DNA from: an uncultured Bacteroidales bacterium
GTDB lineage: Bacteria; Bacteroidota; Bacteroidia; Bacteroidales; Paludibacteraceae
Reading direction: 5' to 3'
DNA length: 64,000 bases
Assembly: GCA_937891975.1 (NCBI GenBank)
Contig: CALAUA010000015.1
Span: forward strand, 145,378-209,377
Part shown: positions 14,261 through 60,539 of the stretch, one piece after another
How positions within the stretch are numbered: position 1 is the first letter of the stretch
Layout: each line of letters begins with the position of its first letter
Made by a program: the position numbers and the translations under genes
Notes under the pieces: generated by a model
The model's database searches: none
What the model was told of the DNA's origin: nothing
Seen by the model: the letters and a program-made list of their open reading frames with translations, nothing else

Positions 14261-14303
14261 CTATGTCATTACTATGTCATTACTATGTGATTACTATGTT
14301 ATT
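14261..14303. repeat. 11-nt word array CTATGTCATTA, four copies
   Basis: ctatgtcattactatgtcattactatgtgattactatgttatt. Confidence 0.9.
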
Positions 14304-14328
14304 CCGCTACCCTTGCGCTACCTTTACG

Positions 14329-14913: not shown

Positions 14914-15006
14914 AACTGCGCCAAGAGAGTGTGTCTGTTCAGTATTATTAACTAGCATAATTGTTAGTGTTTTTTATCAAATTTAAAGTTTTCACATAAA
15001 GCGTGG

Positions 15007-15231: not shown

Positions 15232-15319
15232 GTGCTCAAAATAAGAAAATTTATCTCATTTGAGCACAAACAAGACAACAAAATTGCTCAAAACGAGGAA
15301 TTTTATCTCGTTTGAGCAC
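15232..15319. promoter_or_regulatory. Two tandem copies of a ~36-nt hairpin element
   Basis: gtgctcaaa-(18 nt)-tttgagcac and ttgctcaaa-(27 nt)-tttgagcac, with a half-site tttgagcaaa at ~15208. Confidence 0.5.
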
Positions 15320-18698: not shown

Positions 18699-18834
18699 TG
18701 CCCCTTACATGCCCCTTACTTCCATAGGGACTTCATAGGGACTTCGCCGAAGAATCAGTATAGGATAACCAAGGGATGTATAAAGGATATATATAGGATG
18801 TCCCGAAGATACCCTGAAGATACCCCGAAGATAG
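18699..18834. repeat. Composite repeat, right copy (inverted partner of 14329-14486)
   Basis: Same ends and unique core as the left copy. The internal word module is GAAGTCCCTAT instead of GAGGTTCCGAT. Ends 70 nt upstream of the giant gene 2 start. Confidence 0.85.
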
Positions 18835-18903
18835 GGCATTTGGTCATTGGCTTGACCTCTGCTCACAAAACAAAATAATAACTAGACTAAAATAACAAAA
18901 ATC

Positions 18904-21900: not shown

Positions 21901-24900
21901 GTGGCGATACTGCCTCCTAAGACATATAACATTTCTAATGATGCTAACTGGGGAGGTGTTTCTACAGGTGAAGTTGTTCAAGCGGGTGCAATATATGCAT
22001 GGCACGGCAATCAAGTGATGGTAAAAACAGCAGGCACCCCGCCGACATTAGGAGATGTAAGCATTAGAGTAGGAAGAGCCAACTCTGGATTAACTGCATC
22101 TGCTGGCGGCTCCTCTATCGGACAGGCACAAACCATCACCGATTACTACTATAAAAAGGAGGGTGAGAGTACTTGGACTAAGTTTGACCCGAATAACGTA
22201 AGTGCTTTGCCAGTAGGTATATACAAGGTACACGCGCTCGCACACGATGGCAATATCTACGTGCGCACCGCAGAACCTGCTACTTTGACGATATATGACG
22301 ATTACACCATCACCTATAAAGATCAAGGCGGTAGTGCTTTCACTGGTGCACACGAAGCTGGTTGTCCTGCTATACACCTCTACGGACAGACAACTGAACT
22401 GAAATCAGCAACCAAAACTGGTTATGAGTTTGGCGGTTGGTTTACAAGTCCAGATTGTACAGGCGAACCTATCACTACACTTGGAGCAACAGATTATACT
22501 GCAGACATTACCCTCTACGCTAAGTGGACTGCCAAGACTTATCCCGTTACCCTTGACCAAACTGGTGCAAAAACACCAGGAACTCCCTCTGTAACTGCTA
22601 CTTATTATGCTGCAATGCCTCACATAGAAACTCTACCTACTCCAAAAGATGGCTATGCATTTGCAGGATATTACGACCAAAAAGATGGCGCAGGTACACA
22701 ATATTATGACGCAGAGGGCGCGAGCGCGCACGTGTGGGATAAGGCAAATGATGGTATTCTCTATGCAAAATGGGAGGCAATCACTTACACCATCACTTAT
22801 CATCTCAACGGTGGAAGTGGCGCCGCAAACAGCACTTACACCATCGAATCTGAGGATATTATCTTACCAACCCCTACTAAAGCAGGTCACACCTTTGGCG
22901 GTTGGTATGACAACGAAGGTTGTACAGGAGAAGCTATTACCAAGATAGCTCAAGGTTCTACTGGCCACAAAGAGTATTGGGCAAAGTGGACAATCAATAG
23001 TTATACCATCCTCTTTGGTACAGAAGATGGCGGAACTGTAAGTGCTACTGTAGGTGGGAATGCAATCAGTAGTGGTACTTCACTTACGTATGGTACACAA
23101 GTTCAATTGACTGCCACTCCCGAACCTGGGTATTCTTTCAGCGAATGGACAAATGGTAGTGGCAATGAGGTTTCTACATCCAATCCTTATACAGTGACCA
23201 TAGACGGCAATATCACCCGAAATGCTGTCTTTATTGAAGCGACTACCCTGTATCTCAAACCAAACGCTGATTGGCTGAAAGACGGTGCACGCTTCGCTGC
23301 GTATGCATTTGATGGAGGAGAGGCAACTTGGTATGATATGGAAGAAGTGGGATGTTCTGGTATTTATTCATGTGCCATTCCGGGAAGTTATAATAAGGTT
23401 ATTTTTGGGCGCATGAATCCAAACAAAACGGAGAATAATTTTGATAATGAAGTAAGATGGGAACAGACCATTGATTTAAGTATTCCAACAGATGGTACTA
23501 ATTTATTCACTGTCACAAACAAGCCAGTAGGAAGCAACTGGAATGGTGAATGGGAATCCGAGCCATTTAATCCTCTAGCATATACTATTACGCTGGAAGG
23601 TGAAGGTGGTACGATAGAAATCACACATGAAGGTGGTACAGCTACGGAGAATACTACTGTAGCACCCAATACCATCATCACCGTTGCTCTTTACCCTCAT
23701 AGCGGTTACACGGTAGGTACACCTAAAATAAAGATTGGTTCCAATGCTGCAGCTAACTTGGTAGTAGGGCAAAAATATACTATTTGCGGACCTACTACGA
23801 TTACCGCTAATTGGGTTGAAACGAAATATGCTGTAGCAGTTAATTCAAACAATAATACTTACGGAACGGTAAGTCCAAGCTCTGTACAAGTGGGACAATA
23901 CACTCCTTCTCAGAAGATTACTGCTACGCCGAAAGCTGGTTATCGTTTTGTGAATTGGACAGCCACCGAAGGTGTGTCAATCAATTCCCCAATCTTTGAA
24001 TCCACCACCATCACTGCTTCCCAAGCAGGTACACTAACCGCCAACTTCGAAAAAGACCCTACCGTTTACCTCAAGCCAAGTGCTGTTTGGAAAAAAGATG
24101 GTGCACGTTTTGCAGTGTATTGGTGGAAGGATACAAAGAACGGTTGGATAGATATGACCACTGTCGGCTGTAACGACGAATATTATACAGCCGAATTGCC
24201 TGCAGGAGTTACGAATTTTAAGTTTGTTAGGTTAAAACCTAGTGGTGGGCATGCTTTTAGCAATGCATGGGATCAGACTATAGATCTTACCTTGCCAACT
24301 AACGCCAACAACCTATTTGCAATGAAAAAATTGCATCTCAATATAGGAGAATGGAATAAAGATAATCAGAAATGTTATGCGGCACACTTCTACAATTCAT
24401 CAAATGAAAGTAAGACCATTAATTTGACCGAAGGTAATGATCCGATGGTTTATTACTGCGATATACCAACGGATAAACATTATACGAATGTTGTGTTCTA
24501 TCGTGTGAATCCTAGTAATACTGGAGAAATATGGCATCAAACAAATGACCTGACTATAGACGGCGATTTCTACACGATTACCTCATTCGGTGGAGATGGT
24601 AACAAAGCAGAAGGTACTTGGACGTTACAGAGTATAGGTGAATGGTTGGCGTTGCCGTTGCCTACTATCACCTACACTCAACCAGAGAATGGTACGATTA
24701 TCGTTAAGACCATACGAGGTGTGGAAATACCTAGCGGAACAAAAGTTCCATGGGATACGCAAGTCCTCGTGTCGGTACAACCGAATACAGGATATTCTGT
24801 TGAATATGCTAATATCGATATTGGTGGTACACAGCATGATGTTCAATCGGGTACACCTTACACCATCTGCGGAAATACAACTATCTCTGCTACCATGGAA

Positions 24901-27897
24901 GAACATACAGATTACTATCTAGTAGGTTTGGATGGTGATTGGAGCCCTAAAGCAACAAACAAGTTTGTGGATGGGAAACTGAATATCAACCTCGAAGGAA
25001 ATGGTACAAAAGAATTTAAAATTATCAAGCAACAAGGTAATGCGCAAAAATGGCTGAGCAAACAGTTTACGTTCAAACCTACGGCTCTCACGACTTCGGG
25101 TATCACTGAGGATGGCGAAAATATGAAGATTGAGACGGTGCATAATGGCATTTACCAGTTTACGTGGAATAATGGTACGCTGACTGTGGCATATCCAGAC
25201 GTATGTTACTTGCATGGAGACTTTAATAGTTGGACAGATCACCCAAATCATGCGTTGCACAACAGAGATGCAAAAGTATTCTTGGAAGAGGGTGTTACGT
25301 ATGAGTTTAAAGTGGCAGAAAAGGGAGTATATCGTACACAGAGCGGCAACTTATGGGAAACTCCGATTACTTATACTGAGGGTGGCAAGACTATTATAAT
25401 GAATGATGCTACTTCTTATGACTCGGAACCACATCATAACTCCAAAATCACCGCTAATATGTCAGGATTCTACATCTTCCATTACGATGCAGAGACAAAG
25501 AAATTAACTATTTCCTTCCCTCTGGATGTAGACGACTATCGTTTAGCGTACAAAGATGATATTCATCCTTTCCACCCTGCAGGAATTTACATCAAACAAT
25601 GCACAAGTGGAGAACAATTGGATACAATAAGTTTCTTCGTACATCATGAGAAAAAACCGCTTATCATTTTACAACAATGCTTGTCAGTCACTGGAAACTC
25701 TGCAACATGGGAAACCGTTTGCACGTATGAAACCACCAAAAATTTAGAAACAAATATTGAAGGTCATGGCATAGATTCGACGGGTGTATTCAACTTTGTA
25801 TTGCAACAAACCAACGACCCTGAACATGCTGCTCAACTCTTGACAGAAGATGTACATCCATACACGGGCGACTACTACATCCGTACAAATGCAGCTCCAG
25901 GTAAGTGGGTGGAATTCCAGCAAGATGGCAACAAAATGACATACAGCAGTTATGCAGATAACAACGAGCCATTTAGCCACTACTTCTGTAAGTGGGTATC
26001 CACAGAAGCAGAAGCTGCAAATAATACAAATAATGTGAAATATACCATTGCCAATGACTATAGCTATTGCATATCCGACACTTTGGCTGCTGACCCAGAA
26101 GATGCAAGTCCTCGAATTGTGGCAAATGCAAGTGGTGATTTGCCTACCAATAGCGCAAACGTGCGCTTTGGTTGGGATTGGGGTACCAACCAACTTACAC
26201 GTGCATACATGGCAGGTGCTACTAATGCCACAGCGGCTACATTCTTACGAATAGAACAAGCAGAGGACTTGGAGAATAACGAAGGAGCGGCTGTAACAGA
26301 GATTAATTTTACAGACTTGCAAAACTGGATTTATCAAGTGGATGTGAGAGCCAAAAACACAACAACGATAAAACTGACTGCGCTGTATGCTGAGCATCTA
26401 CAATATTTCAAGGGTGATAAAGATAATAGCATGAGGTTGTTGTCGAGTGATGCAGCGGAGAATAAATGGTTTAATATGCGATTAACTTATGATTTCAAGA
26501 CGAACCACTTGATTATAGCTTGGTTACCTGATGATAAACCAATAGGGGGTGAGTTAGATGCAGATATGATGGTGATTCGTGAGCACAATAGGACTGGTGT
26601 ATCGGTTACTCAATTAAATTTGAATAATGCCTTGGAAAAGGTGAAAACAGTATATGCCGTGATGAGCTTTACACAAGATTGGATTAAGAAAAACTCGCGT
26701 GAGCAAAGCATCTACTGGGTATCCTTCCCATTTGATGTGAAACTCTCTGAGGCATTCGGATTCGGAGAGTATGCCGATGCGTGGATCATGCAATACTACG
26801 ATGGCGAAGAACGTGCTAAGAAGGGTTTATATGCAAACTCAGGTACCTATTGGAAGTATATCTTTGATCCAGAGACGATATTAAAGAAAGGTGTGGGTTA
26901 CGTATTGGTACTTGATCTAAATAAGGTTAAGTTTAATCATGGTGTAAATAGCGTTAGTCTCTATTTCCCATCCAATGGTGAGGTGGGTACGATTACGCAA
27001 GCGGAGGAGCCAAATGTCACAGTAGAGGTACCTGCTCACCAATGTAATTTAGGTGTAAGTACAACAGGTATGGATCATAATATTACGGACTCGCACTGGA
27101 ACCTCATTGGTGTACCTGCGTTCAAAGAAATTGACCAATTCAATGTTACGCAATACCATTATGACCAACAAGATGCTAGTTTCTACTATAAGTTCAATAC
27201 GAATTTGAGTAAGTACACTGTTATAAGTTCTACAAGTGTGACTTTCGAAGCAATGTATTCGTATATGGTACAGTTTGCTGGAACAATCAACTGGACAACC
27301 AAAACAGTTGAGGGTGTTACTCCTGCCCAACTCGCAGCACGTCGCAATAGCGAGAGTGAGTTGCCAGAGAAGGTAGTTCTGAACGTAGAGTTGCTTCAAG
27401 GTGAAGAGATGGCAGACCAAACTTTCGTACAACTGCAGCAAGAGGGCGCAACCGCTGACTTTGATATGAACCTCGACCTCACGAAGATTATCAATAGTGG
27501 TGCGAACATCTACACCCTCGCAGGCGAGCAACGTATCCAGTCTGCAGGTAATGCGCTGCCAATGGGCGAAGCCATTGTGCCAGTGGGTGTACAAATCGCT
27601 ACCGAAGGCGAATACACCTTCCGTATGCCTGACGGCACAGAGGGTGTGGTGGTAGAACTCATTGACTACGAGACCAATACGCGTACCAATCTTTTGCTTA
27701 GCGATTATATCGTCACCCTGCCAAAGGGCACAGAAGAAAATCGTTTTGCACTGCATATCCAACCTGAGAAGGATGTGACCACAGGAGTGGGTAATGTAGG
27801 CGATGAGGCGAAAGGCATTGAGAAATACCTCATCGACGGCAAACTCATCATCCGCACCGCAGAGGGTATCTTCGATGCGCAGGGACATAGGTTGTAA
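18904..27897 (+). CDS. Giant cell-surface protein with Listeria-Bacteroides (InlB B) repeats and a T9SS-like C-terminal tail
   Basis: Uninterrupted 2997-aa ORF. Leader is near-identical to giant gene 1. Canonical repeats such as YDGNGKTGGTVP...KAGYTHTGWNTKADGTGTHYDKGASYTL..STTLYAEW. The last ~100 aa are near-identical to giant gene 1. Confidence 0.9.
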   Translation: MNTTFTNYAEKKAKQILNLLQGYTKGIRITAILILLLMGVSNAWAWTAHFSLMGDPVGNNWQNDRDFMINTSTGTTDEWYIYAYVANNQYFALNNGSNQYGPSSNGQAIKNGTGGGQGNYNTNSWKFTGTSGIIKICCAESNDREWYPWVWVEESAPTIKFKHPWNGGSWSEQTATKQNDGTYTYDGKYGNNKGFNAGPSGKYKYNASQTTVEGSPATGDMCRFIWNPVGYVQGGAETKASGTFKIVKLCSLTYDGNGKTGGTVPSATNNQLYNTSITLSSETLTKAGYTHTGWNTKADGTGTHYDKGASYTLTAASTTLYAEWTSTAPTITISTEKTYLRTAYDKLILKIYYSNIPEGYTYRVHATPEAYFNGNENGDNVDRVSISGNGNTTFVSNGYLAQNQYTVEVILWNNGGATDIISNSLSITVEPQLSVQTRARFNNQINTTAAEHPQPEWVHPSQNVGETITASEPKPGYTFAGWTANDDNLIKFDNPNSLTTIVKSKVNGNNNAVAYANYTRVETYAFIQGRFRVNSASRNQMTYTYDDGGQWNEGSTNIQMEYDDTNSRFYLHTYMKPKELTEPHGTNCGECKPYFYIKTSTSSSSLTNATPYWSSSKQYIIEAGKENKKELTNSSSNVVNNNLRFNTQDESGYVILYFDQQYIWYELEHRLEYDANGGTGSAPSRTYHLKGSTTTTASDNIFTRDGYDFQGWNTKADGTGNQYEAEANITIEANTTLYAQWAKPTFTVTLDPQGGTDGTTSVEATYGEEMPEATMPQREGFTFGGYFTETNGGGTQYYNADGSSTKNWDIKEPKTLYAKWIQQYVIVGNGKGSWLNGANWIESVIADDSFDVTKQSSNIIDGSVTYSACPAGLKNFRIVPWGKWDTNHGKEQLTSCNVPSYTNEDNNIAFVTVAEAAITIGFDGTNITVQVDYDAEDLANVKAEVVADTKRMFYFGDELTDRSRQYLYVNELENSTDNHVVTETKGLLLEGVGAQKWLAVAILPPKTYNISNDANWGGVSTGEVVQAGAIYAWHGNQVMVKTAGTPPTLGDVSIRVGRANSGLTASAGGSSIGQAQTITDYYYKKEGESTWTKFDPNNVSALPVGIYKVHALAHDGNIYVRTAEPATLTIYDDYTITYKDQGGSAFTGAHEAGCPAIHLYGQTTELKSATKTGYEFGGWFTSPDCTGEPITTLGATDYTADITLYAKWTAKTYPVTLDQTGAKTPGTPSVTATYYAAMPHIETLPTPKDGYAFAGYYDQKDGAGTQYYDAEGASAHVWDKANDGILYAKWEAITYTITYHLNGGSGAANSTYTIESEDIILPTPTKAGHTFGGWYDNEGCTGEAITKIAQGSTGHKEYWAKWTINSYTILFGTEDGGTVSATVGGNAISSGTSLTYGTQVQLTATPEPGYSFSEWTNGSGNEVSTSNPYTVTIDGNITRNAVFIEATTLYLKPNADWLKDGARFAAYAFDGGEATWYDMEEVGCSGIYSCAIPGSYNKVIFGRMNPNKTENNFDNEVRWEQTIDLSIPTDGTNLFTVTNKPVGSNWNGEWESEPFNPLAYTITLEGEGGTIEITHEGGTATENTTVAPNTIITVALYPHSGYTVGTPKIKIGSNAAANLVVGQKYTICGPTTITANWVETKYAVAVNSNNNTYGTVSPSSVQVGQYTPSQKITATPKAGYRFVNWTATEGVSINSPIFESTTITASQAGTLTANFEKDPTVYLKPSAVWKKDGARFAVYWWKDTKNGWIDMTTVGCNDEYYTAELPAGVTNFKFVRLKPSGGHAFSNAWDQTIDLTLPTNANNLFAMKKLHLNIGEWNKDNQKCYAAHFYNSSNESKTINLTEGNDPMVYYCDIPTDKHYTNVVFYRVNPSNTGEIWHQTNDLTIDGDFYTITSFGGDGNKAEGTWTLQSIGEWLALPLPTITYTQPENGTIIVKTIRGVEIPSGTKVPWDTQVLVSVQPNTGYSVEYANIDIGGTQHDVQSGTPYTICGNTTISATMEEHTDYYLVGLDGDWSPKATNKFVDGKLNINLEGNGTKEFKIIKQQGNAQKWLSKQFTFKPTALTTSGITEDGENMKIETVHNGIYQFTWNNGTLTVAYPDVCYLHGDFNSWTDHPNHALHNRDAKVFLEEGVTYEFKVAEKGVYRTQSGNLWETPITYTEGGKTIIMNDATSYDSEPHHNSKITANMSGFYIFHYDAETKKLTISFPLDVDDYRLAYKDDIHPFHPAGIYIKQCTSGEQLDTISFFVHHEKKPLIILQQCLSVTGNSATWETVCTYETTKNLETNIEGHGIDSTGVFNFVLQQTNDPEHAAQLLTEDVHPYTGDYYIRTNAAPGKWVEFQQDGNKMTYSSYADNNEPFSHYFCKWVSTEAEAANNTNNVKYTIANDYSYCISDTLAADPEDASPRIVANASGDLPTNSANVRFGWDWGTNQLTRAYMAGATNATAATFLRIEQAEDLENNEGAAVTEINFTDLQNWIYQVDVRAKNTTTIKLTALYAEHLQYFKGDKDNSMRLLSSDAAENKWFNMRLTYDFKTNHLIIAWLPDDKPIGGELDADMMVIREHNRTGVSVTQLNLNNALEKVKTVYAVMSFTQDWIKKNSREQSIYWVSFPFDVKLSEAFGFGEYADAWIMQYYDGEERAKKGLYANSGTYWKYIFDPETILKKGVGYVLVLDLNKVKFNHGVNSVSLYFPSNGEVGTITQAEEPNVTVEVPAHQCNLGVSTTGMDHNITDSHWNLIGVPAFKEIDQFNVTQYHYDQQDASFYYKFNTNLSKYTVISSTSVTFEAMYSYMVQFAGTINWTTKTVEGVTPAQLAARRNSESELPEKVVLNVELLQGEEMADQTFVQLQQEGATADFDMNLDLTKIINSGANIYTLAGEQRIQSAGNALPMGEAIVPVGVQIATEGEYTFRMPDGTEGVVVELIDYETNTRTNLLLSDYIVTLPKGTEENRFALHIQPEKDVTTGVGNVGDEAKGIEKYLIDGKLIIRTAEGIFDAQGHRL

Positions 27898-27922
27898 GAT
27901 TGCTGCCCAAAAACCTCGCTGA

Positions 27923-29462: not shown

Positions 29463-29481
29463 TGGAACTTAATAGTAGGTG

Positions 29482-29510
29482 TCGCGATTCGGGAGTCGGG
29501 AATTAGGAAT
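29482..29510. repeat. Heptamer word array TCGGGAG/TCGGGAA (E-word) at the regulator / recF junction
   Basis: tcgcgattcgggagtcgggaattaggaat. Confidence 0.85.
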
Positions 29511-29514
29511 AGTA

Positions 29515-30639
29515 ATGATTTTGCGAGAACTTAACATATTGAACTACAAGAATATCCGCGAAGCTGCCATGCAGTTCTCGGATAAGCTCAATTGTTTTAT
29601 CGGGCTCAACGGTCAAGGCAAAACCAATGTGCTTGACGCAATATACTACCTCAGTTTCACTAAGTCTGCCTACAATGCGATTGATAGCCAAAATATCCAC
29701 CACGATGAGGAGATGGCTATGATACAAGGACAATACCTCTTGGGCGAAGACATCGAAACGATTAGTTGTGGACTCAAGCGAGGCGTGAAAAAGCAGTTTC
29801 GTCGTGGTAAGAAAGATTATAAGCGACTACTTGACCACATAGGGCTGATTCCGCTAGTGATGGTATCGCCACAAGATAGCGAACTAGTGGTAGAAGGCAG
29901 CGATGAGCGACGCAAGTTTATGGACGGAGTCATCTCGCAGTACAGCAAACCCTATCTGGAGCACCTTACGCAATACAATGCCTTGCTCAAGCAACGCAAT
30001 GCCCTGCTCAAGCAATATGCTGAGGTAGCAGCCGACGCATTGCCTGTGGCATTGTTTGAAGTATTGGAGATGCAACTCGTACAACATGCGCTACCTATTT
30101 ACCAAGAGCGAGTGCGCTTTATTGAGCAGTTTGTCCCCTACTTCCAAGAGGTATACCGCGCCATATCGGGGGATAAGGAGCAAGTGGCACTGCAATACAT
30201 ATCGCAACTCCACGAACGCGACCTGACTGAAGCACTCGCACGCACACGTCAACGCGACCTCATACTAGGGTGGACATCGCAGGGCATACACAAAGATGAA
30301 CTGGAGATGTCGCTCGGCAACTATCCGCTCAAGCGCGTGGGCAGCCAAGGACAGCAGAAGACCTATCTCTTGGCGATGAAACTGGGACAGGCGCTGTACT
30401 TAGATTCGGTGCATGCAGTGAATACGAAGCCGATATTGCTATTAGATGACATCTTCGACAAACTAGATAGCGAACGCGTGGAAAGGATTGTGCAACTGGT
30501 TGTAGGTGAGCAGTTTGGACAGATATTCATTACCGATACTGACCGCCAACACCTGACTGCTATTCTAAGCGAACAATATATGAATGCCAAAGTTTGGCAT
30601 GTGGATAATGGACAAATTATTGAATCAAACAAACAATAG
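29515..30639 (+). CDS. recF: DNA replication and repair protein RecF
   Basis: ORF trimmed to MILRELNILNYKNI at 29515. Walker A in GLNGQGKTNVLDAIYY. Signature region SQGQQKT, LLLDDIFDKLD. Confidence 0.9.
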   Translation: MILRELNILNYKNIREAAMQFSDKLNCFIGLNGQGKTNVLDAIYYLSFTKSAYNAIDSQNIHHDEEMAMIQGQYLLGEDIETISCGLKRGVKKQFRRGKKDYKRLLDHIGLIPLVMVSPQDSELVVEGSDERRKFMDGVISQYSKPYLEHLTQYNALLKQRNALLKQYAEVAADALPVALFEVLEMQLVQHALPIYQERVRFIEQFVPYFQEVYRAISGDKEQVALQYISQLHERDLTEALARTRQRDLILGWTSQGIHKDELEMSLGNYPLKRVGSQGQQKTYLLAMKLGQALYLDSVHAVNTKPILLLDDIFDKLDSERVERIVQLVVGEQFGQIFITDTDRQHLTAILSEQYMNAKVWHVDNGQIIESNKQ

Positions 30640-32844: not shown

Positions 32845-32884
32845 AAAAATGCACTTTTTTTTGAGAAAAGTGCATCTTTTTGTT
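32845..32884 (-). terminator. Hairpin terminator downstream of the WYL gene (possibly bidirectional)
   Basis: atgcactttt / aaaagtgcat stem flanked by A-run and T-run. Confidence 0.6.
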
Positions 32885-32915
32885 TAGTGTTTAGAGTTTA
32901 GTGTTTAGAGGCTGG
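32881..32915. repeat. B-word array
   Basis: tgtttagtgtttagagtttagtgtttagaggctggg. The ending ttagaggctggg recurs at 62868-62880. Confidence 0.9.
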
Positions 32916-33831: not shown

Positions 33832-33841
33832 ATTGTGTGTT

Positions 33842-33870
33842 GAGTGTTTAGAGTTTAGTGTTTAGTGATT
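33842..33870. repeat. B-word array at the U32 / WYL junction
   Basis: gagtgtttagagtttagtgtttagtgatt. The U32 stop (33855-33857) is inside the array. Confidence 0.9.
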
Positions 33871-35618
33871 CGCATTTCGCAGTGTTTGCAGTCGAACTCT
33901 AGAGTGAGGATAGTGCCGTTTTGCAAACGCAGATAGCGTGGTTCGTTGGTCATAGGATTGCTCTTCCTACAGTGTCCTAACTCATGGAGGATACAATATT
34001 TGCAGGTCATGAGGGGGTAATGGGACGCTTCGCTGTAGGACGGCGTGCCGCCTATTGGATATTGGACGCCCGTTGGGCTATTGGGTAATGGACGCTTCGC
34101 TATTGGATATTGGACGCCCTGCGGGCTATGGGAAGCAATGAGCTCTCTACGCCATTGGTTGAGTAAGCTAGTAGGTATGAAATATGGGAAGGTGTCGGAG
34201 CATAATTGGTCGTGTGCAAAGATTTGGATATCGTTGGCGATATAATCAGTATCTCCGAGTTTGCTCAATTGCTGAATGATGGTTTGTAATGCACGCTCTG
34301 GGTTAGTGGCAGATTGATGCTCCGCTTCAAATATCGTACTCTTCTCTCCGATTGTTAGGCGATAGCCTTCTGGTATTATCTCAAAACGAATATCTACTGG
34401 TATTTGTCGTTTGGCTCGCAGCGAACGTAGAAATTCGTTATCGAGATTTCTATACAGCGTTGTTCCGATTACCCGATTCCCGATTTGCGACACCTGAATA
34501 TTTGGAAAAATCCAATCACCTTCTATACGGTTGATTGCGAAGCCTTGATCTTCGTAGCAGATACCATCGCCATTATGCAACGTGATATTGGGACGCAGTT
34601 GCACACGAATGGCATTGTGCTTGGTGGCAATGACTGTGCCAATCTTCTCGCCTGTGGATTTGGGTGTTTGCCAATTCGCCATTTTGGCGGTGCGACCGTG
34701 CAAGAAATAATCAGTACCTCCACGATGAAAAGTCTTAGCAGGGTTAGGAGTGAAACTATATTGATAGACCGAACGTGTAGAGGCATGTTGTAGAGTAGGA
34801 TGACTATCCATTAGTTGGTCAAGCAGTTGACGATAGTATGCCACAATATTGGTGACATAGTCGCGATCCTTTAATCTGCCCTCAATCTTGAAGGTGGTTA
34901 TGCCCGCTTCAATCATCTCAGCAAGATAGCGACTGCGGTCCATATCTTGCAACGAAAGCAGGTAACGCTGGTGAATAGGTTGTCCATTGTTGTCTATAAT
35001 CTCATTGCCATCTTTGTCTAGTAAATCGTAGCGTTGACGGCAGAGTTGGGCGCAGCAACCGCGATTGGCACTACGATTCATCAATGCCTCCGATAGATAA
35101 CATCTACCGCTATAGCTCACGCAAAGGGCTCCGTGGACGAAGGCTTCGAGTTCGATGGGGGCGACTTCGTCGCGGTGTAGGGTGTAGGGGGTAGAGTGTA
35201 AAGTATGGTGGATGTCGCGGATTTGTTCGAGGGATAGTTCGCGTGCGAGGACAGCACGACGGAACCCCATTTGTTGCAAGCGAAGTACTTGCTCTGGGGT
35301 GCGGTTGTCGCATTGCGTAGAAGCATGCAAGCGAATAGGTGGCAAATCGTAATCCAGCAAATGTAGGTCTTGGATAATAAGAGCATCTACTCCTACCTTA
35401 TATAGTTCGTGCGCGAGCGCGCATGCGCGAGGATATTCATCTTCGTGGAGCAGGGTGTTGAGTGTGACAAGTACTTTAACACCAAAGCGATGGGCATACT
35501 TGACCAACTGCGTAATATCCTCCAAAGAGTTGCCTGCTGCTTGGCGCGCACCAAACTCGGGTGCACCAATGTACACCGCATCAGCACCCGCTTGAATGGC
35601 TGCTATTCCTACTTCCAA
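33855..35618 (-). CDS. Peptidase U32 family protein (long form)
   Basis: AGADAVYIGAPEFGARQAAGN, EAFVHGALCVSYSGRCYLS. The conserved N-terminal SLLAPARDLE continues in frame upstream of the TTG at 35618, so the true start may lie at 35643-35666. Confidence 0.85.
   Translation of the reverse strand: MEVGIAAIQAGADAVYIGAPEFGARQAAGNSLEDITQLVKYAHRFGVKVLVTLNTLLHEDEYPRACALAHELYKVGVDALIIQDLHLLDYDLPPIRLHASTQCDNRTPEQVLRLQQMGFRRAVLARELSLEQIRDIHHTLHSTPYTLHRDEVAPIELEAFVHGALCVSYSGRCYLSEALMNRSANRGCCAQLCRQRYDLLDKDGNEIIDNNGQPIHQRYLLSLQDMDRSRYLAEMIEAGITTFKIEGRLKDRDYVTNIVAYYRQLLDQLMDSHPTLQHASTRSVYQYSFTPNPAKTFHRGGTDYFLHGRTAKMANWQTPKSTGEKIGTVIATKHNAIRVQLRPNITLHNGDGICYEDQGFAINRIEGDWIFPNIQVSQIGNRVIGTTLYRNLDNEFLRSLRAKRQIPVDIRFEIIPEGYRLTIGEKSTIFEAEHQSATNPERALQTIIQQLSKLGDTDYIANDIQIFAHDQLCSDTFPYFIPTSLLNQWRRELIASHSPQGVQYPIAKRPLPNSPTGVQYPIGGTPSYSEASHYPLMTCKYCILHELGHCRKSNPMTNEPRYLRLQNGTILTLEFDCKHCEMRITKH
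34021..34135. repeat. TATTGGA/CTATTGG word block (D-word) inside the U32 CDS
   Basis: ...ggacggcgtgccgcctattggatattggacgcc...gctattggatattggacgccc... encodes GVQYPIAKRPLPNSPTGVQYPIGGTPSYSE. Confidence 0.85.
34463..34490. repeat. E-word heptamers inside the U32 CDS
   Basis: ttccgattacccgattcccgatttgcga encodes QIGNRVIG. Confidence 0.75.
35174..35206. repeat. C-word heptamers inside the U32 CDS
   Basis: ggtgtagggtgtagggggtagagtgtaaagtat encodes HTLHSTPYTLH. Confidence 0.8.
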
Positions 35619-47118: not shown

Positions 47119-47916
47119 CTACTCTTTTCGGAAAATATCTTCGGGATATTCTACATGCGTGAGAAATAGCCCTTCAGCAGGGGCTGAGTCGCCTGCTGCG
47201 CAGCGGTTGTGCTGCGTGATGACCTCGGCAAACTGCTCCTTAGTCATCTTACCACGACCGACTTCAAACAATGTACCTACTACCGCACGCACCATATTAC
47301 GCAGAAAACGGTCAGCAGCGATAGTGAATACGGCGTGTCCGTTGCCCAATTCTTTCCACTCAGCACGCGTAAGGTCGCAAATCGTGGTCTTGACATCCGT
47401 ATTCGTGCGGCAGAAAGAAGCAAAATCCTGTTTGCCAATCAACAATTGTGCTGCCTCATTCATCGCTGCGAAGTCCAATCCTGGGCGTACACGCGTGGCT
47501 TGTGTACAAAGGAAAGGGTCTTTGTGATCAATGATATGATATTCGTATGTACGACGCACTGCATCAAAGCGTGCATGCGCATCATCCCTCACAGGGTAAA
47601 CATCAAAGACTGCGATAGAATCGGGCAAAATGCCGTTGAGGCGGAAGACCAAATTAGGGGGTATAGGACGCACTATTGGGCTATTGGACGGTGTTCCGCC
47701 TATTGGATATTGGCTATTGGGTAAATCAAAATGCGCATACATCTCGCGGGCATGTACACCTGCGTCGGTGCGACCAGCAAAAGTGAACGGTACCTCCTCA
47801 CGGAAAATCATAGCCAACGCCTGTTCCATAGTTTCCTGAACAGTCACGCCATTAGGCTGGCGTTGCGAGCCATGAAAGGCAGTACCATCATATGCAAAGC
47901 GGAGGAAATAGCGCAT
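47119..47916 (-). CDS. truA: tRNA pseudouridine(38-40) synthase TruA
   Basis: RYFLRFAYDGTAFHGSQRQPNG, AGRTDAGVHA, RFLRNMVRAVVGTL. Confidence 0.9.
   Translation of the reverse strand: MRYFLRFAYDGTAFHGSQRQPNGVTVQETMEQALAMIFREEVPFTFAGRTDAGVHAREMYAHFDLPNSQYPIGGTPSNSPIVRPIPPNLVFRLNGILPDSIAVFDVYPVRDDAHARFDAVRRTYEYHIIDHKDPFLCTQATRVRPGLDFAAMNEAAQLLIGKQDFASFCRTNTDVKTTICDLTRAEWKELGNGHAVFTIAADRFLRNMVRAVVGTLFEVGRGKMTKEQFAEVITQHNRCAAGDSAPAEGLFLTHVEYPEDIFRKE
47660..47721. repeat. D-word block inside the truA CDS
   Basis: ctattgggctattggacggtgttccgcctattggatattggctattgg encodes NSQYPIGGTPSNSPIV. Shares about 30 nt with the U32 insert. Confidence 0.85.
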
Positions 47917-51954: not shown

Positions 51955-53469
51955 TTATTTCTTCTTAATGAGCGTCTTTCCATCCAAACGATAGAAGATG
52001 ACACAATATATAATAAGGAGTATAGTACCTATACCCATTTTCATCCATTCATTGATTGGCAATAAGTGTGCCAAAGTGTAATATTCTGCCAAAAGTGTCA
52101 CTACAAGTAGGGTATATATGCCAATTCGGCGCAAATCGTATGGTATCTCGAGGTGTTTGCGTCCCACGAGATAGGACAGTAGCATAATCACGAAATAGCA
52201 TATAGTACTGCTGGCTGCGGAAGCCATATATCCAATTCGTGGCACGAAAATAGCTTGCAATGCGAAGGTAATCACCACGCCGATGATGGAGAAGTAGGCG
52301 CCCCATTGCGTCTTGTCGGTGAGTTTGTACCAGAAGCTGAGGTTGAAATACACACCTTGGAAGATATATGTCCAGAGGACTACTGGTACGATTTTTAGTC
52401 CTTCCCAATAGGAAGGGGCGATGATAAACTTCAGTAGGTCGAGGTAGAAAATCATCCCCAAGAGAATCATGTAGGAGAAGATGATATAGTATTTCATTGC
52501 ATCTGCATAGGCAGCTACGGATTCGCGGTCTTTGTGTTTGGCAAAGACAAAGGGTTCGTAGGCGTAGCGGAATGCTTGGGTGAACATCATCATTACCATC
52601 GCCACTTTGAAGCAGGCTCCGTAGATACCTAACTGCGCTTGCGCATCGGCTCCGTCATAGAAGAAGGGGAAGAGGATACGGTCAAGCGTTTGGTTCATTA
52701 TACCGCACACCCCCAAGACCAAGAGGGGCAACGAGTAGCGAAGCATTCGCTTCAGCAATTTTCCTGAAAATAGTCGTCGGGAGTCGGAAGTCGGGAGTCC
52801 GTGCTCATTTTTAAAGCCCTCAACTATCGCTGGTAACAAACATAGTGTTTGTATGCCCGTAGCCAAGATATTTGCCACGAAGACATACCCTACTCCATAG
52901 TTGGGATTGTACCATGAGGAGATGATTGCCCAATCCTGAATCTTCGGACAAAGTACGAGGAAGAAGAGATTGAGGGCGATATTGAGGAATACGAATAGGA
53001 GTTTGAGTGCCGCAAATTGCAAAGGGCGTTTCTTGTAGCGCAAGTATGCAAATGGAATACTAGCGAAGGCATCCATTGCCACTACTATACCGAGCAGTGC
53101 GATGAACTCGCTGTGCGTAGGGTATCCCAATGCGGTGGCAATAGGCATTTGCCATATCACACATGCTACGGCGAACAGTAAAGAGGTAGTAAAAAGCGTA
53201 ATGAGCGAAGTTCTATAAACCGTCTTAGGATTTTCTTCGGTTTTGTTGGCAAAGCGGAAGAAACCCGTTTCCATACCGTAGGTGAGAATCACTAGCAATA
53301 GTGCTGTCCACGCATAGAGGTTGGTCACGATACCATAATCTGACTGCTGTTGCAGCACGTATGTGTACAGCGGAACGAGCAGCCAGTTGAGAAACTTGCC
53401 TACAATGGATGAGACGCCATAAATGGCGGTTTCTTTAGCCAATATTTTCATTTGCAGATTACTGCTCAT
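51955..53469 (-). CDS. MOP-superfamily flippase / polysaccharide biosynthesis protein
   Basis: 504-aa polytopic membrane protein with a Wzx/MurJ-like N-terminus. Confidence 0.65.
   Translation of the reverse strand: MSSNLQMKILAKETAIYGVSSIVGKFLNWLLVPLYTYVLQQQSDYGIVTNLYAWTALLLVILTYGMETGFFRFANKTEENPKTVYRTSLITLFTTSLLFAVACVIWQMPIATALGYPTHSEFIALLGIVVAMDAFASIPFAYLRYKKRPLQFAALKLLFVFLNIALNLFFLVLCPKIQDWAIISSWYNPNYGVGYVFVANILATGIQTLCLLPAIVEGFKNEHGLPTSDSRRLFSGKLLKRMLRYSLPLLVLGVCGIMNQTLDRILFPFFYDGADAQAQLGIYGACFKVAMVMMMFTQAFRYAYEPFVFAKHKDRESVAAYADAMKYYIIFSYMILLGMIFYLDLLKFIIAPSYWEGLKIVPVVLWTYIFQGVYFNLSFWYKLTDKTQWGAYFSIIGVVITFALQAIFVPRIGYMASAASSTICYFVIMLLSYLVGRKHLEIPYDLRRIGIYTLLVVTLLAEYYTLAHLLPINEWMKMGIGTILLIIYCVIFYRLDGKTLIKKK
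52774..52800. repeat. E-word heptamers inside the flippase CDS
   Basis: tcgtcgggagtcggaagtcgggagtcc encodes GLPTSDSRR in a predicted loop. Confidence 0.8.
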
Positions 53470-53475
53470 ATCTCA

Positions 53476-53509
53476 CTATCTTCGGGGTATCTTCGGGATA
53501 TCTTCAGGA
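53476..53509. repeat. 11-nt word array GTATCTTCGGG (H-word) at the rsmI / flippase junction
   Basis: ctatcttcggggtatcttcgggatatcttcagga. The same word opens the composite repeats at 14329 and 18834. Confidence 0.9.
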
Positions 53510-53513
53510 TAAA

Positions 53514-54191: not shown

Positions 54192-54236
54192 TCTCTAAAC
54201 ACTAAACAGTAGCGCTGAAAGCGCGTTCACTAAACG
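54192..54236. repeat. B-word / hairpin / B-word composite element (copy 4)
   Basis: tctctaaacactaaacagta-gcgc-tgaaa-gcgc-gttcactaaacg. Fills the junction upstream of rsmI. Confidence 0.85.
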
Positions 54237-55025
54237 TTACGCGAAGCGTCTCTTGAGTACGTTCTCGAAGAGTTGTACTGCGGTGGACTCTTTGTCCCAA
54301 TCGAAGTTGTCGAGCACGTAGTCCATCGCCTCGTTGAGTGAACCGAGATTGTTAATTTCATCCAATGTTTTTTGCATCAACTCACCATTGCCTGCAAAGA
54401 GTTCGCGTTGAAAGAGGAAACGGTCCCCCAAAGAGATAGCTTGGCGGATATCCTCTACTGCCGCACCAAACAACGATGTTTGTTGTGGCACAGGACGTGG
54501 AGCAGGTTGTGGAGCAGGTGCTGGCTCTACCACTGGCTCTGCCTTTACTTCTGGTTGTGGAGCAGGTTCCACGATTGGTTCCACCACTGGCTCTGCCGTT
54601 GCTTCTGGTTGTGGAGCAGGTGCTGGCGCTACAACTGGTTCTTCTACAACCGGTGCTTCTACCTCTGGAGTATCTATAATATCCAGCGTTTCTAGTTCTT
54701 CTTTAACTTCCTCTTGTGGTTTTTCTGCGGGCTCTTCAGCGAACTCGTTTTCAATTGTCACCTCTTCGTTTTCACTTTCAGTTTCTTCTTCAACGATGAG
54801 TTCGATCTCTACTTCTGGTTCTGCAGCTTGTGCAGCTACAGCACCTGTAGCTGCCAATGCAGCCACTTCGGCTTGCAAGGTTGCTATTAGGGCTTTCGCC
54901 TCATCGCCTTCTCGCCTCATTGCCTCATTGGCTTCTTCGAGTTGCGCCACACGCGCCTCCAGAGCAGAGAGTTTCTGCTCCAGAGCGGTCGTGTAGTTGG
55001 TTATTGCTTGAATAAGATTGTTCAT
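54237..55025 (-). CDS. Hypothetical protein: coiled coil + acidic / Pro-rich EPVVEP repeats + C-terminal globular domain
   Basis: 262-aa ORF. Low-complexity centre PAPAPQPEATAEPVVEPIVEPAPQPEVKAEPVVEPAPAPQPAP. Confidence 0.5.
   Translation of the reverse strand: MNNLIQAITNYTTALEQKLSALEARVAQLEEANEAMRREGDEAKALIATLQAEVAALAATGAVAAQAAEPEVEIELIVEEETESENEEVTIENEFAEEPAEKPQEEVKEELETLDIIDTPEVEAPVVEEPVVAPAPAPQPEATAEPVVEPIVEPAPQPEVKAEPVVEPAPAPQPAPRPVPQQTSLFGAAVEDIRQAISLGDRFLFQRELFAGNGELMQKTLDEINNLGSLNEAMDYVLDNFDWDKESTAVQLFENVLKRRFA
54896..54932. repeat. A-word octamers inside the CDS
   Basis: ttcgcctcatcgccttctcgcctcattgcctcattgg encodes NEAMRREGDEAK. Confidence 0.8.
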
Positions 55026-57537: not shown

Positions 57538-58581
57538 CTATATTTCCACTACCATACACCATCCGTGCTTGTCTTCAGTGCGACCATACTGGATGTCCTG
57601 CAAGGCGTGGTATAGCTTTGTGAGTACAGGGCCTGGCTTGTCGCCGAAAGGGTAGGTGATATTCTTGTCAGGGTCGAAGACCTTGGTCAGAGGCGAAATA
57701 ACGCACGCTGTACCGCAAGCAGCTGCTTCTTGAATATCAGTCAATTCCTCTACACGAATATGACGGCGAGTGACCTTCATACCCATCTCACGCGCCAAAG
57801 TCATCAACGAATCGTTGGTGATGCTAGGCAAAATGGCACTACTGCGGGGGGTGAGGTATTCGAAGTAAGATTCCCGATTCTCGACTCCCGACTCATGATG
57901 CTTTATTCCTATGAAATTGGATGCCGTGCACTCATCAATATACTTGTGCGTTTTAGCATCGGTGAACATACACTCATAGCCCATGGCGTGTGCCGCTTCG
58001 CTGGCGCGGAAGGATGCCGCGTAGTTACCACCCACTTTCCAGCAGCCCGTACCTTGTGGTGCCGCACGATCAATGGTGCGGTTCACTATTGCAGGTATGC
58101 CTTTGAAACCATTGGGGAAATACGAACCGATAGGTGTAGGAATGACCACAAACTCGCAGTCTTTGCCAGGCCCCACACTAATATCAGGCGTAGTAGCAAC
58201 TAGCAACGGACGGAAATAGAGCGTGGCGCCAGTCTCGTAAGGAGGAAGGAAAGCGATATTCTTCTCCAATGCCAGTAAAATAGCTTCGCAAAAGAGTTCA
58301 ACGGGCACGGGTGTCATCAGTAGTCCCTCGGCGGAGTGGTACATGCGTTTGGCGTTCTCCTCCATGCGGAAGATACGCACCTTACCGTCCACACCACGAA
58401 AGGCCTTTAGCCCTTCGAAGCACTCTTGACCATAGTGCAGGCCCGTGGCTGCGGCATGGATAGGAATCATCTTGTCGCGTGTGGCATAGGGGCGCTCCCA
58501 TACACCATTCTTGCATGCCGCACGAACGATATAGTCCGTCTCGGTATAGTGAAATGTCAGTTTATTCCAGTCTATATTCAT
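57538..58581 (-). CDS. ilvE: Branched-chain amino acid aminotransferase
   Basis: HYGQECFEGLKAFR, GNYAAS, class IV fold length 347 aa. Confidence 0.85.
   Translation of the reverse strand: MNIDWNKLTFHYTETDYIVRAACKNGVWERPYATRDKMIPIHAAATGLHYGQECFEGLKAFRGVDGKVRIFRMEENAKRMYHSAEGLLMTPVPVELFCEAILLALEKNIAFLPPYETGATLYFRPLLVATTPDISVGPGKDCEFVVIPTPIGSYFPNGFKGIPAIVNRTIDRAAPQGTGCWKVGGNYAASFRASEAAHAMGYECMFTDAKTHKYIDECTASNFIGIKHHESGVENRESYFEYLTPRSSAILPSITNDSLMTLAREMGMKVTRRHIRVEELTDIQEAAACGTACVISPLTKVFDPDKNITYPFGDKPGPVLTKLYHALQDIQYGRTEDKHGWCMVVEI
57871..57895. repeat. E-word heptamers inside the ilvE CDS
   Basis: ttcccgattctcgactcccgactca encodes ESGVENRE. Confidence 0.8.
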
Positions 58582-59111
58582 ATCTTCATTACGGATTCAG
58601 GTCCGTATTCAAATAATATGTCTAATATGCTTTGTCCGTTGCCGAATGCTTGCTCTAAATCTTGCCCTGCCCAATCTGTAGTGGTAATCAGTCTTTGTTC
58701 TTGGCTCTTGGTTCTTGGTTCATCGTTCGCTATCAAACGAATGATTACCTCGTGGATTTTCTCGTTGAAATCGACCAAAAAGCGTGTTTCTTGTTCGTAG
58801 AACGGGCGGAAGAAATCGGCGTAATAATCGAAGTAGGGTGTACGTTTGTAAGCACTCACGAGAGCAATCCAATGCTGATGTTGCCAACGCTTCTGGTAAC
58901 TAATCTCCACATCGCGAGTGAACTGTTTGCTATCCACGCGCTTCACGGGCACAGTAAGTGTCAGTGGCCCGTCTGGTGTGGCGATAGTACACCGATTGCG
59001 GTAGGTTTGCTTCGGAAAACTCTCCATTACCTCAATCTGCACTGCCGATGGATTCGCCAAAAACTGGCTGTACCATTCCGCAGGACCCATATATGTTGTT
59101 GGTAGTATCAT
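58578..59111 (-). CDS. WbqC-like family protein
   Basis: 177 aa. N-terminus ILPTTYMGPAEWYSQF and FPKQTYRNRCTI resemble the WbqC family. From memory only. Confidence 0.5.
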   Translation of the reverse strand: MILPTTYMGPAEWYSQFLANPSAVQIEVMESFPKQTYRNRCTIATPDGPLTLTVPVKRVDSKQFTRDVEISYQKRWQHQHWIALVSAYKRTPYFDYYADFFRPFYEQETRFLVDFNEKIHEVIIRLIANDEPRTKSQEQRLITTTDWAGQDLEQAFGNGQSILDILFEYGPESVMKI

Positions 59112-59120: not shown

Positions 59121-59159
59121 ATCGGGAATCAGGAATCAGGAATCGGGACTCGGGAATCC
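59121..59159. repeat. E-word heptamer array at the lepB / wbqC-like junction
   Basis: atcgggaatcaggaatcaggaatcgggactcgggaatcc. Confidence 0.9.
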
Positions 59160-59165: not shown

Positions 59166-60539
59166 TTATTCAAAATTGCTGAGTCCGATGCGATTCCAAC
59201 GGATATGACCTTTGCCCCATGGGTTGTCTTTCTCAACACTGAGCCAAACGAACATTGGGCGACCTACGATATGGTCTTCTGGCACAAAGCCCCAATAACG
59301 GCTATCGGCTGACTTATGACGGTTGTCGCCCATCATCCAATAGTAATCCATCTCAAACACATAAGGTTCGCCCACTTTCATTGGCTTGAACTCATACGCA
59401 TCTGCTATGCGCTTATACAACCAATAATTCTCCTCGGTAATCATCACCGTATCCCCCTTGGCAGGGATATAGATTGGACCATAGTTATCGCGCGTCCAAG
59501 TGTTGTGTCCCAAAGGATACACCTCACCCCCTTGGTCTTCGGGTTCGATGTCGATGCTGAGCACATGGCTGTTCTTCTCAAGTTCGGCTTTCATCTCAGC
59601 GGTCAGTGGTAGGCGATAAACGCCATTGCCATTGCTCTCGCGATCTTCTTTGGAAATACCGAGTTTGCTCAGGTAACTATTACCCAACACATGACCATCG
59701 GTGCGAACGATATAGTTGTATTGCAAGTATGGGTGTATGGGCTCTTTCACACCGTCGATATAAATCACATTATCAATGATTTGCAACGTGTCGCCTGGTG
59801 TGCCTACGCAACGCTTCACATAGTTTTCGCGGCGGTCCACAGGGCGAACGACAATCTCTCCAAAGACATCCTTGCGGTTCTCCACCGTGCGCTTGCCATA
59901 GTAGTGGCAAAGAGTGTAGTAGTCAGGATTCTGCATTTTCGTGCAGACGGTATCACCCGTAGGGAAGTTAAACACCACAATATCGCCTTTCTCCACTTTG
60001 TCCCAACCACGGAGGCGTTTATACTCCCATTGTGGGTTGTCGAAATAGCTCTTTCCGCCCCAAGGGAAGGTGTGTTGCACCAGCGGCATGGAGAGTGGCG
60101 TGTTAGGCACGCGTGCTCCATAACTCATCTTATTCACACAGAGAAAGTCGCCCACACGCAGGGTTTTCTCCAGCGAAGAAGTGGGGATTTGGTAGTTTTG
60201 GAAGATATAGACATTGATGAAATACACCGCTACCAACGCAAAAACGATGGCGTCTATCCACGAGCAAATGGTATAGAGTGTGCTGTTGGCATGTGGATTC
60301 TTTTTGCCTGCCGCCTCTTCCTCTTTGGTGAGGGGTTTGTACTTCTTCCACCAGTTCCAAGGGATATACTTGGTGGTGAACATATCAGCAATAATTGGCA
60401 ACAGCACGAGCCAGCCGAGACTAGCCCAATCGCCCCATGCTACCCAAACGACAAACGCGATGTAGATCGCGCACCATATGCCACAAGAGATCCACCCTTT
60501 GGTGGTTACTTCTTGGATTCTATCTTGAAAACTTTTCAT
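59166..60539 (-). CDS. lepB: Signal peptidase I
   Basis: SLEKTLRVGDFLCVNKMSYG (catalytic Ser region), GDNRHKSADSRYWGFVPEDHIVGRP. Confidence 0.9.
   Translation of the reverse strand: MKSFQDRIQEVTTKGWISCGIWCAIYIAFVVWVAWGDWASLGWLVLLPIIADMFTTKYIPWNWWKKYKPLTKEEEAAGKKNPHANSTLYTICSWIDAIVFALVAVYFINVYIFQNYQIPTSSLEKTLRVGDFLCVNKMSYGARVPNTPLSMPLVQHTFPWGGKSYFDNPQWEYKRLRGWDKVEKGDIVVFNFPTGDTVCTKMQNPDYYTLCHYYGKRTVENRKDVFGEIVVRPVDRRENYVKRCVGTPGDTLQIIDNVIYIDGVKEPIHPYLQYNYIVRTDGHVLGNSYLSKLGISKEDRESNGNGVYRLPLTAEMKAELEKNSHVLSIDIEPEDQGGEVYPLGHNTWTRDNYGPIYIPAKGDTVMITEENYWLYKRIADAYEFKPMKVGEPYVFEMDYYWMMGDNRHKSADSRYWGFVPEDHIVGRPMFVWLSVEKDNPWGKGHIRWNRIGLSNFE

Follow-up and report, generated by a model that had tools for sequence, protein, structure and literature searches.

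Among the long simple repeats of bacteria, those with heptanucleotide units are the most common, and their origin, the spread of their words and their function have gone unexplained since the 1990s. Here, we describe five arrays of the heptamer TCGGGAR (S1–S5), at gene junctions and inside genes, in a 64,000-nt stretch of DNA from an uncultured Bacteroidales bacterium (contig CALAUA010000015.1; this whole stretch is called the window below). The closest described system is the GGGAATC simple sequence repeat (SSR) of Xanthomonas, defined as a (GGGANTN)n tandem of at least 14 bp in which one unit or more is exactly GGGAATC (Rehm et al. 2015, PMC4692102). There are about 185 of these repeats per genome, 89–93% of them intergenic, near the ends of open reading frames (ORFs) and between co-directional genes; four units are preferred, and the repeats form a G-quadruplex (G4) in vitro (PMC4692102). 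They vary extensively in length and sequence between close species and have no assigned function, and Nostoc has a related G-rich heptamer, GGGGA(C/T)T (PMC4692102). Another heptamer, TAACTGA, is found in Beggiatoaceae, in Cyanobacteria and in five Bacteroidetes, including Paludibacter propionicigenes (MacGregor 2015, PMC4679880). As relayed in these two papers, the most abundant long SSRs in the work of Mrazek, Guo and Shah (2007) were those with heptamer units, with polymerase slippage as the proposed cause. The tandem repeats of Borg elements are pervasive and fast-evolving, have independent origins and give rise to new low-complexity protein regions (Schoelmerich et al. 2023, PMC9879509).

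The window was scanned for tandem units with at most one mismatch from TCGGGAR, and 100 first-order Markov simulations of the window served as the null. The scan returned five arrays and one weak two-unit match at 14211, against a Markov expectation of 0.31 arrays with two or more units and none with three or more. The five arrays lie at exactly the coordinates given in an earlier note made from the sequence alone, two at gene junctions and three in frame inside genes. S1 (29482–29510, plus strand; TCGCGAT TCGGGAG TCGGGAA TTAGGAA T on the G-rich strand) has about four units, two of them near the consensus, and sits in the spacer between the stop codon of a sigma54 response-regulator gene (29462) and the ATG of recF (29515–30639, plus strand), 13 nt upstream of that ATG. 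S2 (34463–34490, minus strand; TCGCAAA TCGGGAA TCGGGTAA TCGGAA) is degenerate, with a 1-nt insertion in one unit, and is in frame in a Peptidase_U32 and DUF3656 gene (33855–35618, minus strand), at residues ~376–386 (VSQIGNRVIG). S3 (52774–52800, plus strand; TCGGGAG TCGGAAG TCGGGAG) is on the antisense strand of a flippase-like gene (Polysacc_synt; 51955–53469, minus strand), in which the sense CTCCCGA-type units are translated as LPTSDSRR in a central loop. S4 (57871–57895, minus strand; three units, TCGGGAG TCGAGAA TCGGGAA) is in frame in ilvE (57538–58581, minus strand), encoding a class IV branched-chain aminotransferase (Pfam PF01063, Aminotran_4, E = 7e-22; PDB BCAT 7lv7, E = 3e-74), where it forms HESGVENRES in a beta-hairpin flanked by the conserved motifs NFIGIK and YLTP. 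S5 (59121–59159, plus strand; five units, TCGGGAA TCAGGAA TCAGGAA TCGGGAC TCGGGAA) fills the spacer between the stop codon of lepB, an S26 signal peptidase gene (59166–60539, minus strand), and the start of a WbqC-like gene (58578–59111, minus strand), at 59111, on the strand antisense to both. The recF, U32, flippase, ilvE, lepB and wbqC-like genes were assigned by Pfam, and these assignments, together with the translations, bear out the hosts and peptides named in the earlier note: ESGVENRE in IlvE, PTSDSRR in the flippase and QIGNRVIG in U32. Degenerate forms of the unit include TCAGGAA, TCGAGAA, TCGGAAG and TCGGGAC.

The word family has been described before, as the GGGAATC/(GGGANTN)n heptamer SSR of Xanthomonas (PMC4692102). 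TCGGGAA is a rotation of GGGAATC, with the same variable position, the fifth base in GGGA-N-TC. The arrays fall within the sequence definition of that SSR: all five fit GGGANTN with one or two degenerate units, and GGGAATC itself is present in S2, S4 and S5, while S1 and S3 have only GGGAGTC or GGGAATT. Like the Xanthomonas repeats, they are scattered over loci, have positions near the ends of ORFs and between co-directional genes, occur on either strand and vary among relatives, S5 doing so in both copy number and sequence. They differ in that the host is a Bacteroidales with 44% G+C, rather than a high-G+C gammaproteobacterium or, as for Nostoc, a cyanobacterium, and in that the word is one of many coexisting word families. 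In addition, the intergenic bias is lost, with three of the five window copies, a small sample, in frame in enzymes versus 7–11% intragenic copies in Xanthomonas. The arrays are 3–5 units long and degenerate, and contain 2, 2, 2, 2 and 3 intact GGG tracts in S1 to S5, respectively, so that the G4 property is missing. Accordingly, a three-tetrad G-quadruplex function was rejected for the window copies, which are too short and degenerate, none having four GGG tracts. We also asked how widespread the word is: (TCGGGAR)x3 occurs at more than 119 loci in many phyla, but the composition-matched control (GCGTGAR)x3 occurs in at least 120 stretches, making the recurrence across phyla uninformative as a sign of a special word, and the argument was dropped.

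With the TAACTGA repeats, the window arrays have in common a position just upstream of starts or just after stops, relatives with shorter, repeat-free spacers, the presence of other heptamer words alongside in Bacteroidetes intergenic regions, and in-ORF copies only on a stop-free strand. The word is another one, however, and TAACTGA copies within ORFs are mostly at protein termini or in hypothetical proteins, whereas the window copies are in internal loops of conserved enzymes. As far as the long SSRs of Mrazek and colleagues are described in the two later papers, the heptanucleotide units, slippage as the proposed cause and a sporadic distribution among lineages are shared, but in the window 7- and 8-nt units are commonly in frame, via 21- or 24-nt steps. 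Compared with the Borg repeats, and leaving aside their unit sizes, the window has imperfect units of 7–15 nt that form word families at many loci of a bacterial chromosome. Heterocystous cyanobacteria reportedly carry short tandemly repeated repetitive (STRR) heptamers, with words such as CCCCAGT, TTGGTCA and CAACAGT, and small dispersed repeats (SDRs); Mazel in 1990 and Elhai et al. in 2008 are said to have described coexisting word families there, hairpin elements nested with arrays and some frame-preserving insertions. The window arrays were not classed as STRRs, the host being one of the Paludibacteraceae and the words differing from the STRR words.

Since 7 and 3 have no common factor, a heptamer array runs through all three reading frames in each 21 nt, giving one cyclic heptapeptide per strand. 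For (TCGGGAA)3 this is SGIGNRE, and for its complement FPIPDSR. The IlvE (SGVENRE) and U32 (IGNRVIG) peptides are cyclic permutations of a single heptapeptide period read from the same strand, and among the three coding copies only that of the flippase (PTSDSR) reads the opposite strand. What the earlier description took for different frames and unrelated peptides thus comes down to a difference of strand; its conclusion that the DNA word, and not a peptide, is the conserved entity holds. TCGGGAR is free of stop codons in all frames of both strands, which is why it can be found in frame in both orientations. CTCTAAA/TTTAGAG and AAGGTTA/TAACCTT carry stops on both strands, and in the window they are confined to intergenic positions. 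Where AAGGTTA units are found in the IlvE of relatives, they alternate with AAGGCGA units exactly where TAA would be in frame.

Searches of species-representative genomes with IlvE and U32 showed that the window belongs to an uncultured ruminant-gut lineage of Paludibacteraceae. The nearest genome, JAZSAI01, is 98% identical in IlvE and, over 16.6 kb, 93% identical in nucleotide sequence, and a single metagenome scan for strain-level relatives gave nothing above ~93% IlvE protein identity. All allele comparisons, in which relatives are cited by L numbers, are between species, at 93% nucleotide identity or less. In all outgroups and basal rumen relatives, the IlvE hairpin reads GIK-(G/N/D)N-(T/S/E)Y and has no insert. 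Within the clade, at least 10 unrelated inserts occur at this one hairpin position, all alleles being in frame. TCGGGAR arrays are found here in the window, where the insert is 11 residues long, and in L001, L002, L030, L031, L057, L059, L246, L247 and L254; other inserts consist of AAGGTTA, AAGGCGA or TAGGCGA arrays, CTACACC arrays, the 15-mer CAGCGAAGCGATCTA, 8-mers, 10-mers or hairpin-bearing elements. Their length changes in in-frame steps of 21 nt (21 nt in L251 versus 42 in L012; 33 in L006 versus 54 in L038). An alignment with the solved BCAT structure 7lv7 shows a hairpin of comparable length at the insert position, which fits a permissive surface turn. The IlvE of L269 (961–2160) has a composite in-frame insert of 66 residues, made of GTGTAGAATG-type 10-mers followed by CTACACA heptamers, showing how much this loop tolerates. 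The turn is presumably exposed to solvent, from what is generally known of fold-type IV enzymes. We also considered whether S4 was born in situ from the ancestral ATCGGAATC of the IGIK codons, but the register is one base off and this origin is unsupported. In L019 and L029, a palindrome element tagged with GTAG is in frame in IlvE.

The other two coding sites behave similarly. The flippase of basal relatives reads LPRGARFSW and has no insert; an S3-type array is present in L002–L004, L006, L007, L011, L020 and L057, and L005, L013, L042 and L044 have other words or elements at the site, an 8-mer array, a CCAAGA-type array and a hairpin element being among those seen in the clade. In U32, the loop is four residues shorter in non-clade homologues (Prevotella, Alistipes, Edwardsiella). 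The U32 array is old within the clade, of equal length in most species and drifted; it is orthologous in L201–L208, and in the closest relative, L200, it has been swapped for a TCCAATA-plus-hairpin element. These orthologue alignments bear out the suggestion that the coding copies are short lineage-specific inserts. They also exclude the segments being conserved parts of each protein family: the inserts are missing from outgroup orthologues, and with five arrays versus 0.31 expected, a mere chance likeness at the DNA level is excluded as well. No point was found in favour of either, and we give them practically no credence.

Seven not being a multiple of three, a change of one unit is a frameshift, and the arrays might therefore be contingency loci, in which changes in heptamer copy number shift the frame and cause phase variation. 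One of the host genes is indeed a surface-polysaccharide flippase. However, the arrays are short and imperfect, the remaining hosts (IlvE and U32, and, for other words, D-Ala-D-Ala ligase (Ddl) and TruA) are housekeeping proteins, and at the IlvE and flippase sites no out-of-frame allele was found among those examined, the 66-residue insert of L269 included, with the in-frame steps being of 21 nt. Phase variation is therefore a highly improbable explanation.

The junction between lepB and the wbqC-like gene was compared across ~100 loci. Its ancestral state is a TAATG overlap, which is still empty in many species; in others, the site is filled by one of at least 12 unrelated word families. The array corresponding to S5, TTCCCGA on the coding strand, is found in ~10–17 species, depending on the degeneracy allowed, with 3, 5 or 8 units: five in the window and L030, three in L004, L056 and L059, and eight in L001 (+21 nt), where the array contains five GGG tracts. 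In L014 and L057, the site is filled by 10-mers that include the wbqC start ATGGTAT, and the array of L042 consists of repeats of the lepB end TTTGAGTAG. Arrays made of the sequence of the junction itself show birth in situ by short tandem duplication. Upstream of recF, the array is common to the window and L200, L201 has CCTACAC words instead, and L209 has a 10-nt spacer with no array. Indels between the window and L001 or L200 are concentrated at arrays, with +21 nt at S5 and 14 nt at 47964 and at 35670. At 53470, a 51-nt array of 11-mers in the window (TATCTTCGGGA at 53477–53511) is missing from L001, leaving an empty site. The earlier note had raised the possibility of empty-site alleles with target duplications; empty alleles do exist at the recF and lepB/wbqC junctions, but no target-site duplications were seen at the filled and empty junctions compared.

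As side observations, the region upstream of recF in L237 contains ~366 nt of GTAG-tagged palindromes together with ~20 copies of the same 15-mer as in IlvE. In L237 and at ~54200–54235 of the window, such GTAG-tagged, GC-rich palindromes, which are of the repetitive extragenic palindrome (REP) type, stand beside arrays of heptamers or 15-mers, for example GCCCTGCGGGCTGTAG and GGCGCTAGCGCCTGTAG.

The positions of the TCGGGAR arrays raise the question of whether they are functional cis-elements, either G-quadruplexes or i-motifs or tandem protein-binding sites that tune transcription or translation at operon junctions, with the coding copies as by-products. The S5 word, its strand and its position, 10 nt after one gene and 10 nt before the next, are kept throughout the species that have it. 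The Xanthomonas repeats form G4 in vitro and are clustered within 50 bp of ORF ends (PMC4692102), and it has been suggested that TAACTGA heptamers located upstream of start codons serve translational regulators as sites (PMC4679880). On the other hand, all five arrays fall short of four intact GGG tracts, three of the five are inside genes, on either strand, and the same junctions are empty or have unrelated words in sister species. The predicted RNA folds of the S1 and S5 junction arrays were no better than those of shuffled sequences (z from −0.6 to −1.3). We therefore consider a regulatory role very unlikely.

Several observations suggest that slippage alone is not the whole story. The 9-mer AGGTGTCGC (29477–29485, plus strand) comprises the 5' flank of S1 and its first degenerate unit, and S2 has an identical 5' flank. 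The 9-mer has only two copies in the window, versus 0.25 expected; both adjoin a TCGGGAR array, with the same offset, and the degenerate units of S1 and S2 follow in the same order. U32 (34032–34065) and TruA (47680–47713) have in common an in-frame 34-nt element consisting of TATTGGA words and a small hairpin (GGACGG..CCGCC), with 88% identity between the two copies, which gives QYPIGGTPS in both proteins. The same kind of element replaces S2 in L200 and sits intergenically in L001, and the 34-nt copies look like the copy-and-paste of a very small element. AAGGTTA-type arrays at 32892, at 62856 and in the IlvE of relatives all have the same ending, AGGCTGGG. Shared flanks, shared unit order and the sharing of words among loci (see below) lead us to infer some ectopic copying or conversion.

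These same features could be taken to mean that the arrays are very small non-autonomous mobile elements, akin to SDRs, MITEs (miniature transposable elements with inverted repeats) or REPINs, pasted into coding loops and junctions alike by a trans-acting enzyme. Filled and empty alleles exist at every site, unrelated words occupy one site in sister species, and S1 and S2 share a flank that is not repeat. The constant end of the AAGGTTA-type arrays, the in-frame pair of 34-nt elements and the REP-kind palindromes with their GTAG tags beside arrays in L237 and at ~54207 of the window speak for this reading as well. When the five sites were aligned with their flanks, and filled junctions with empty ones, the TCGGGAR arrays nonetheless showed no terminal inverted repeats, hairpin, target-site duplication or common termini. 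The lengths of arrays differ by whole units, some arrays of relatives are plainly built from local sequence, and Pfam scans of 29 window ORFs revealed neither a transposase nor a REP-associated tyrosine transposase (RAYT). Taken together, mobility of the arrays as elements in their own right appears unlikely.

The TCGGGAR arrays are part of a much larger load of repeats. Per 100 kb, Tandem Repeats Finder gave 23 arrays of period 7 and 22 of period 11 in the window, and 25 and 9, respectively, in 1.0 Mb of clade loci, as compared to 5.8 and 2 in 0.34 Mb of outgroup loci. The lineage thus has about four times as many period-7 arrays as the outgroups, along with arrays of 8, 10, 11 and 15 nt, and 96 canonical heptamer words were counted in the clade loci. 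The sister clade, whose IlvE reads KGNE, is poor in repeats. Words recur among the arrays of the window: 10 pairs are within one mismatch of each other, where 2.0 would be expected and 2000 resamplings never gave as many. Nearly all co-directional gene junctions of the window are occupied by an array. In-frame arrays are found elsewhere as well, including the TATTGGA-type element in TruA and, in the WbqC-like protein (58692–58721), four TCTTGGY units encoding EPRTKSQEQ, in place of which L001 has five TATTGCC units (MAIRNRQWAIGKN). The U32 gene has two arrays besides S2, a CTACACC array (35174–35200) and the TATTGGA-plus-hairpin element (34032–34133). What is new is that internal loops of housekeeping enzymes serve as hotspots at which words are swapped in frame; the coexistence of so many word families and the host lineage are new as well.

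Other repeats were noted in passing. Arrays of the 8-mer AGGCGATG (CCTCATCG on the other strand) are in frame in several genes (3977–4035, 4435–4472, 3081–3126 and 54892–54937). Ddl has the 8-mer array twice (GDEAMRREGDEAMRRLGEE and EAMRQLGDEAIGED), a related array is present in a polyprenyl synthase, and one is found in the ORF at 54237–55025. The CTCTAAA/CACTAAA (TGTTTAG) family occurs at six junctions (2816–2851, 3813–3839, 32881–32910, 33837–33867, ~47950 and ~54190); it has stops in all frames on both strands, and it overlaps or adjoins the stop codons of upstream genes. At 14258–14486 and 18699–18833, there are successive blocks of different 11-mers, each repeated two to four times (for example TATCTTCAGGG, TGAGGTTCCGA and GTAAGGGGCAT). 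The blocks at 14258–14486 are found again, inverted, at a distance of 4.2 kb (111 nt, 88% complementary), flanking a Bro-N protein gene and an AAA_14/DUF4143 ATPase gene. Two giant divergent ORFs (5867–12904, minus strand, and 18904–27897, plus strand), encoding 2345 and 2997 residues, have inverted repeats in common at both ends: 155 nt at 95% at their starts (12770–12924 versus 18884–19038) and 377 nt at 82% at their 3' ends (5858–6234 versus 27530–27906). Finally, a 176-nt inverted repeat, 91% complementary (14642–14817 and 15342–15517), joins the ORFs at 14491–14958 (minus strand) and 15312–15713 (plus strand) and looks like an inverted partial gene duplication.

The junctions between TCGGGAR units read GA-N-TC, where N is the variable base of the word family. 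GANTC is depleted in the window, with 151 sites versus 201 ± 13 expected, and 14 of the 151 are inside the five TCGGGAR arrays. The pattern may be tied to methylation or restriction of the HinfI or CcrM type, or it may be a coincidence. As a mechanism for the arrays it was rejected, since other word families have no such palindrome, and it is kept only as an unexplained lead.

The explanation that we prefer, with a probability of roughly 70%, is that the arrays result from slippage or short tandem duplication, that ectopic copying was occasionally added and that selection filtered the outcome; they have no dedicated function that we could see. They have the properties of a slippage-type long SSR, namely head-to-tail units of 1–11 nt in arrays that are longer than expected by chance and polymorphic in length by whole units, and they behave as fast-turnover, near-neutral DNA. 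Arrays arise and are remodelled by replication slippage or short tandem duplication, as shown by the whole-unit indels of 14 and 21 nt and by some arrays of relatives that are built from the local stop or start codon. Once formed, a word could occasionally be copied or converted from one locus to another, to judge from the common flanks, the order of units and the non-random sharing of words. Selection would then probably act as a filter, retaining arrays in the few bases that separate co-directional genes, or in solvent-exposed loops if the strand that is read lacks stop codons in all of its frames and the array has a total length divisible by three. In proteins, the arrays would merely extend a loop by the cyclic heptapeptide SG(I/V)GNRE or (F/L)P(I/T)PDSR.

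Several points weigh against this explanation. Pure slippage in situ leaves unexplained the presence of the same word at five unlinked sites in 64 kb, nor does it account for the arrival of an array at the zero-length TAATG junction, where there was no proto-repeat. The window and L001 (93% nucleotide identity) have entirely different words in the WbqC array, TCTTGGY in the former and TATTGCC in the latter, with no intermediates seen. The retention of the S5 word across so many species could reflect constraint. We pinpointed neither an enzyme nor a repair defect that could make 7–11-nt duplications more frequent, and, as the comparisons are all between species, slippage was inferred rather than watched within a population. 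We entertain as a tentative and rather less probable proposal that some lineage-specific process continuously seeds short word arrays and small hairpin elements into permissive sites. This process could be an altered property of replication or repair, or a trans-acting copy-and-paste activity.

Essential enzymes in this lineage are able to carry fast-changing in-frame repeat inserts of 7 to 66 residues, which has a bearing on annotation, on protein-family alignments and on the reading of "lineage-specific" loops in metagenome-assembled genomes (MAGs). With more than 100 related species in which the same junctions and loops are empty or filled with one word or another, the lineage is a dense natural experiment, in which one can see arrays born from local sequence, expansions by whole units and what looks like copying from locus to locus. 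If arrays are indeed being seeded continuously, the loops of IlvE, U32, Ddl, TruA and the flippases would be insertion hotspots, with at least 10 unrelated in-frame inserts among sister species, and would be for bacteria what low-complexity inserts are for Plasmodium proteins, or tandem repeats for Borgs. In that case, well over 100 related genomes with filled and empty alleles would make the origin and spread of a heptamer family tractable.

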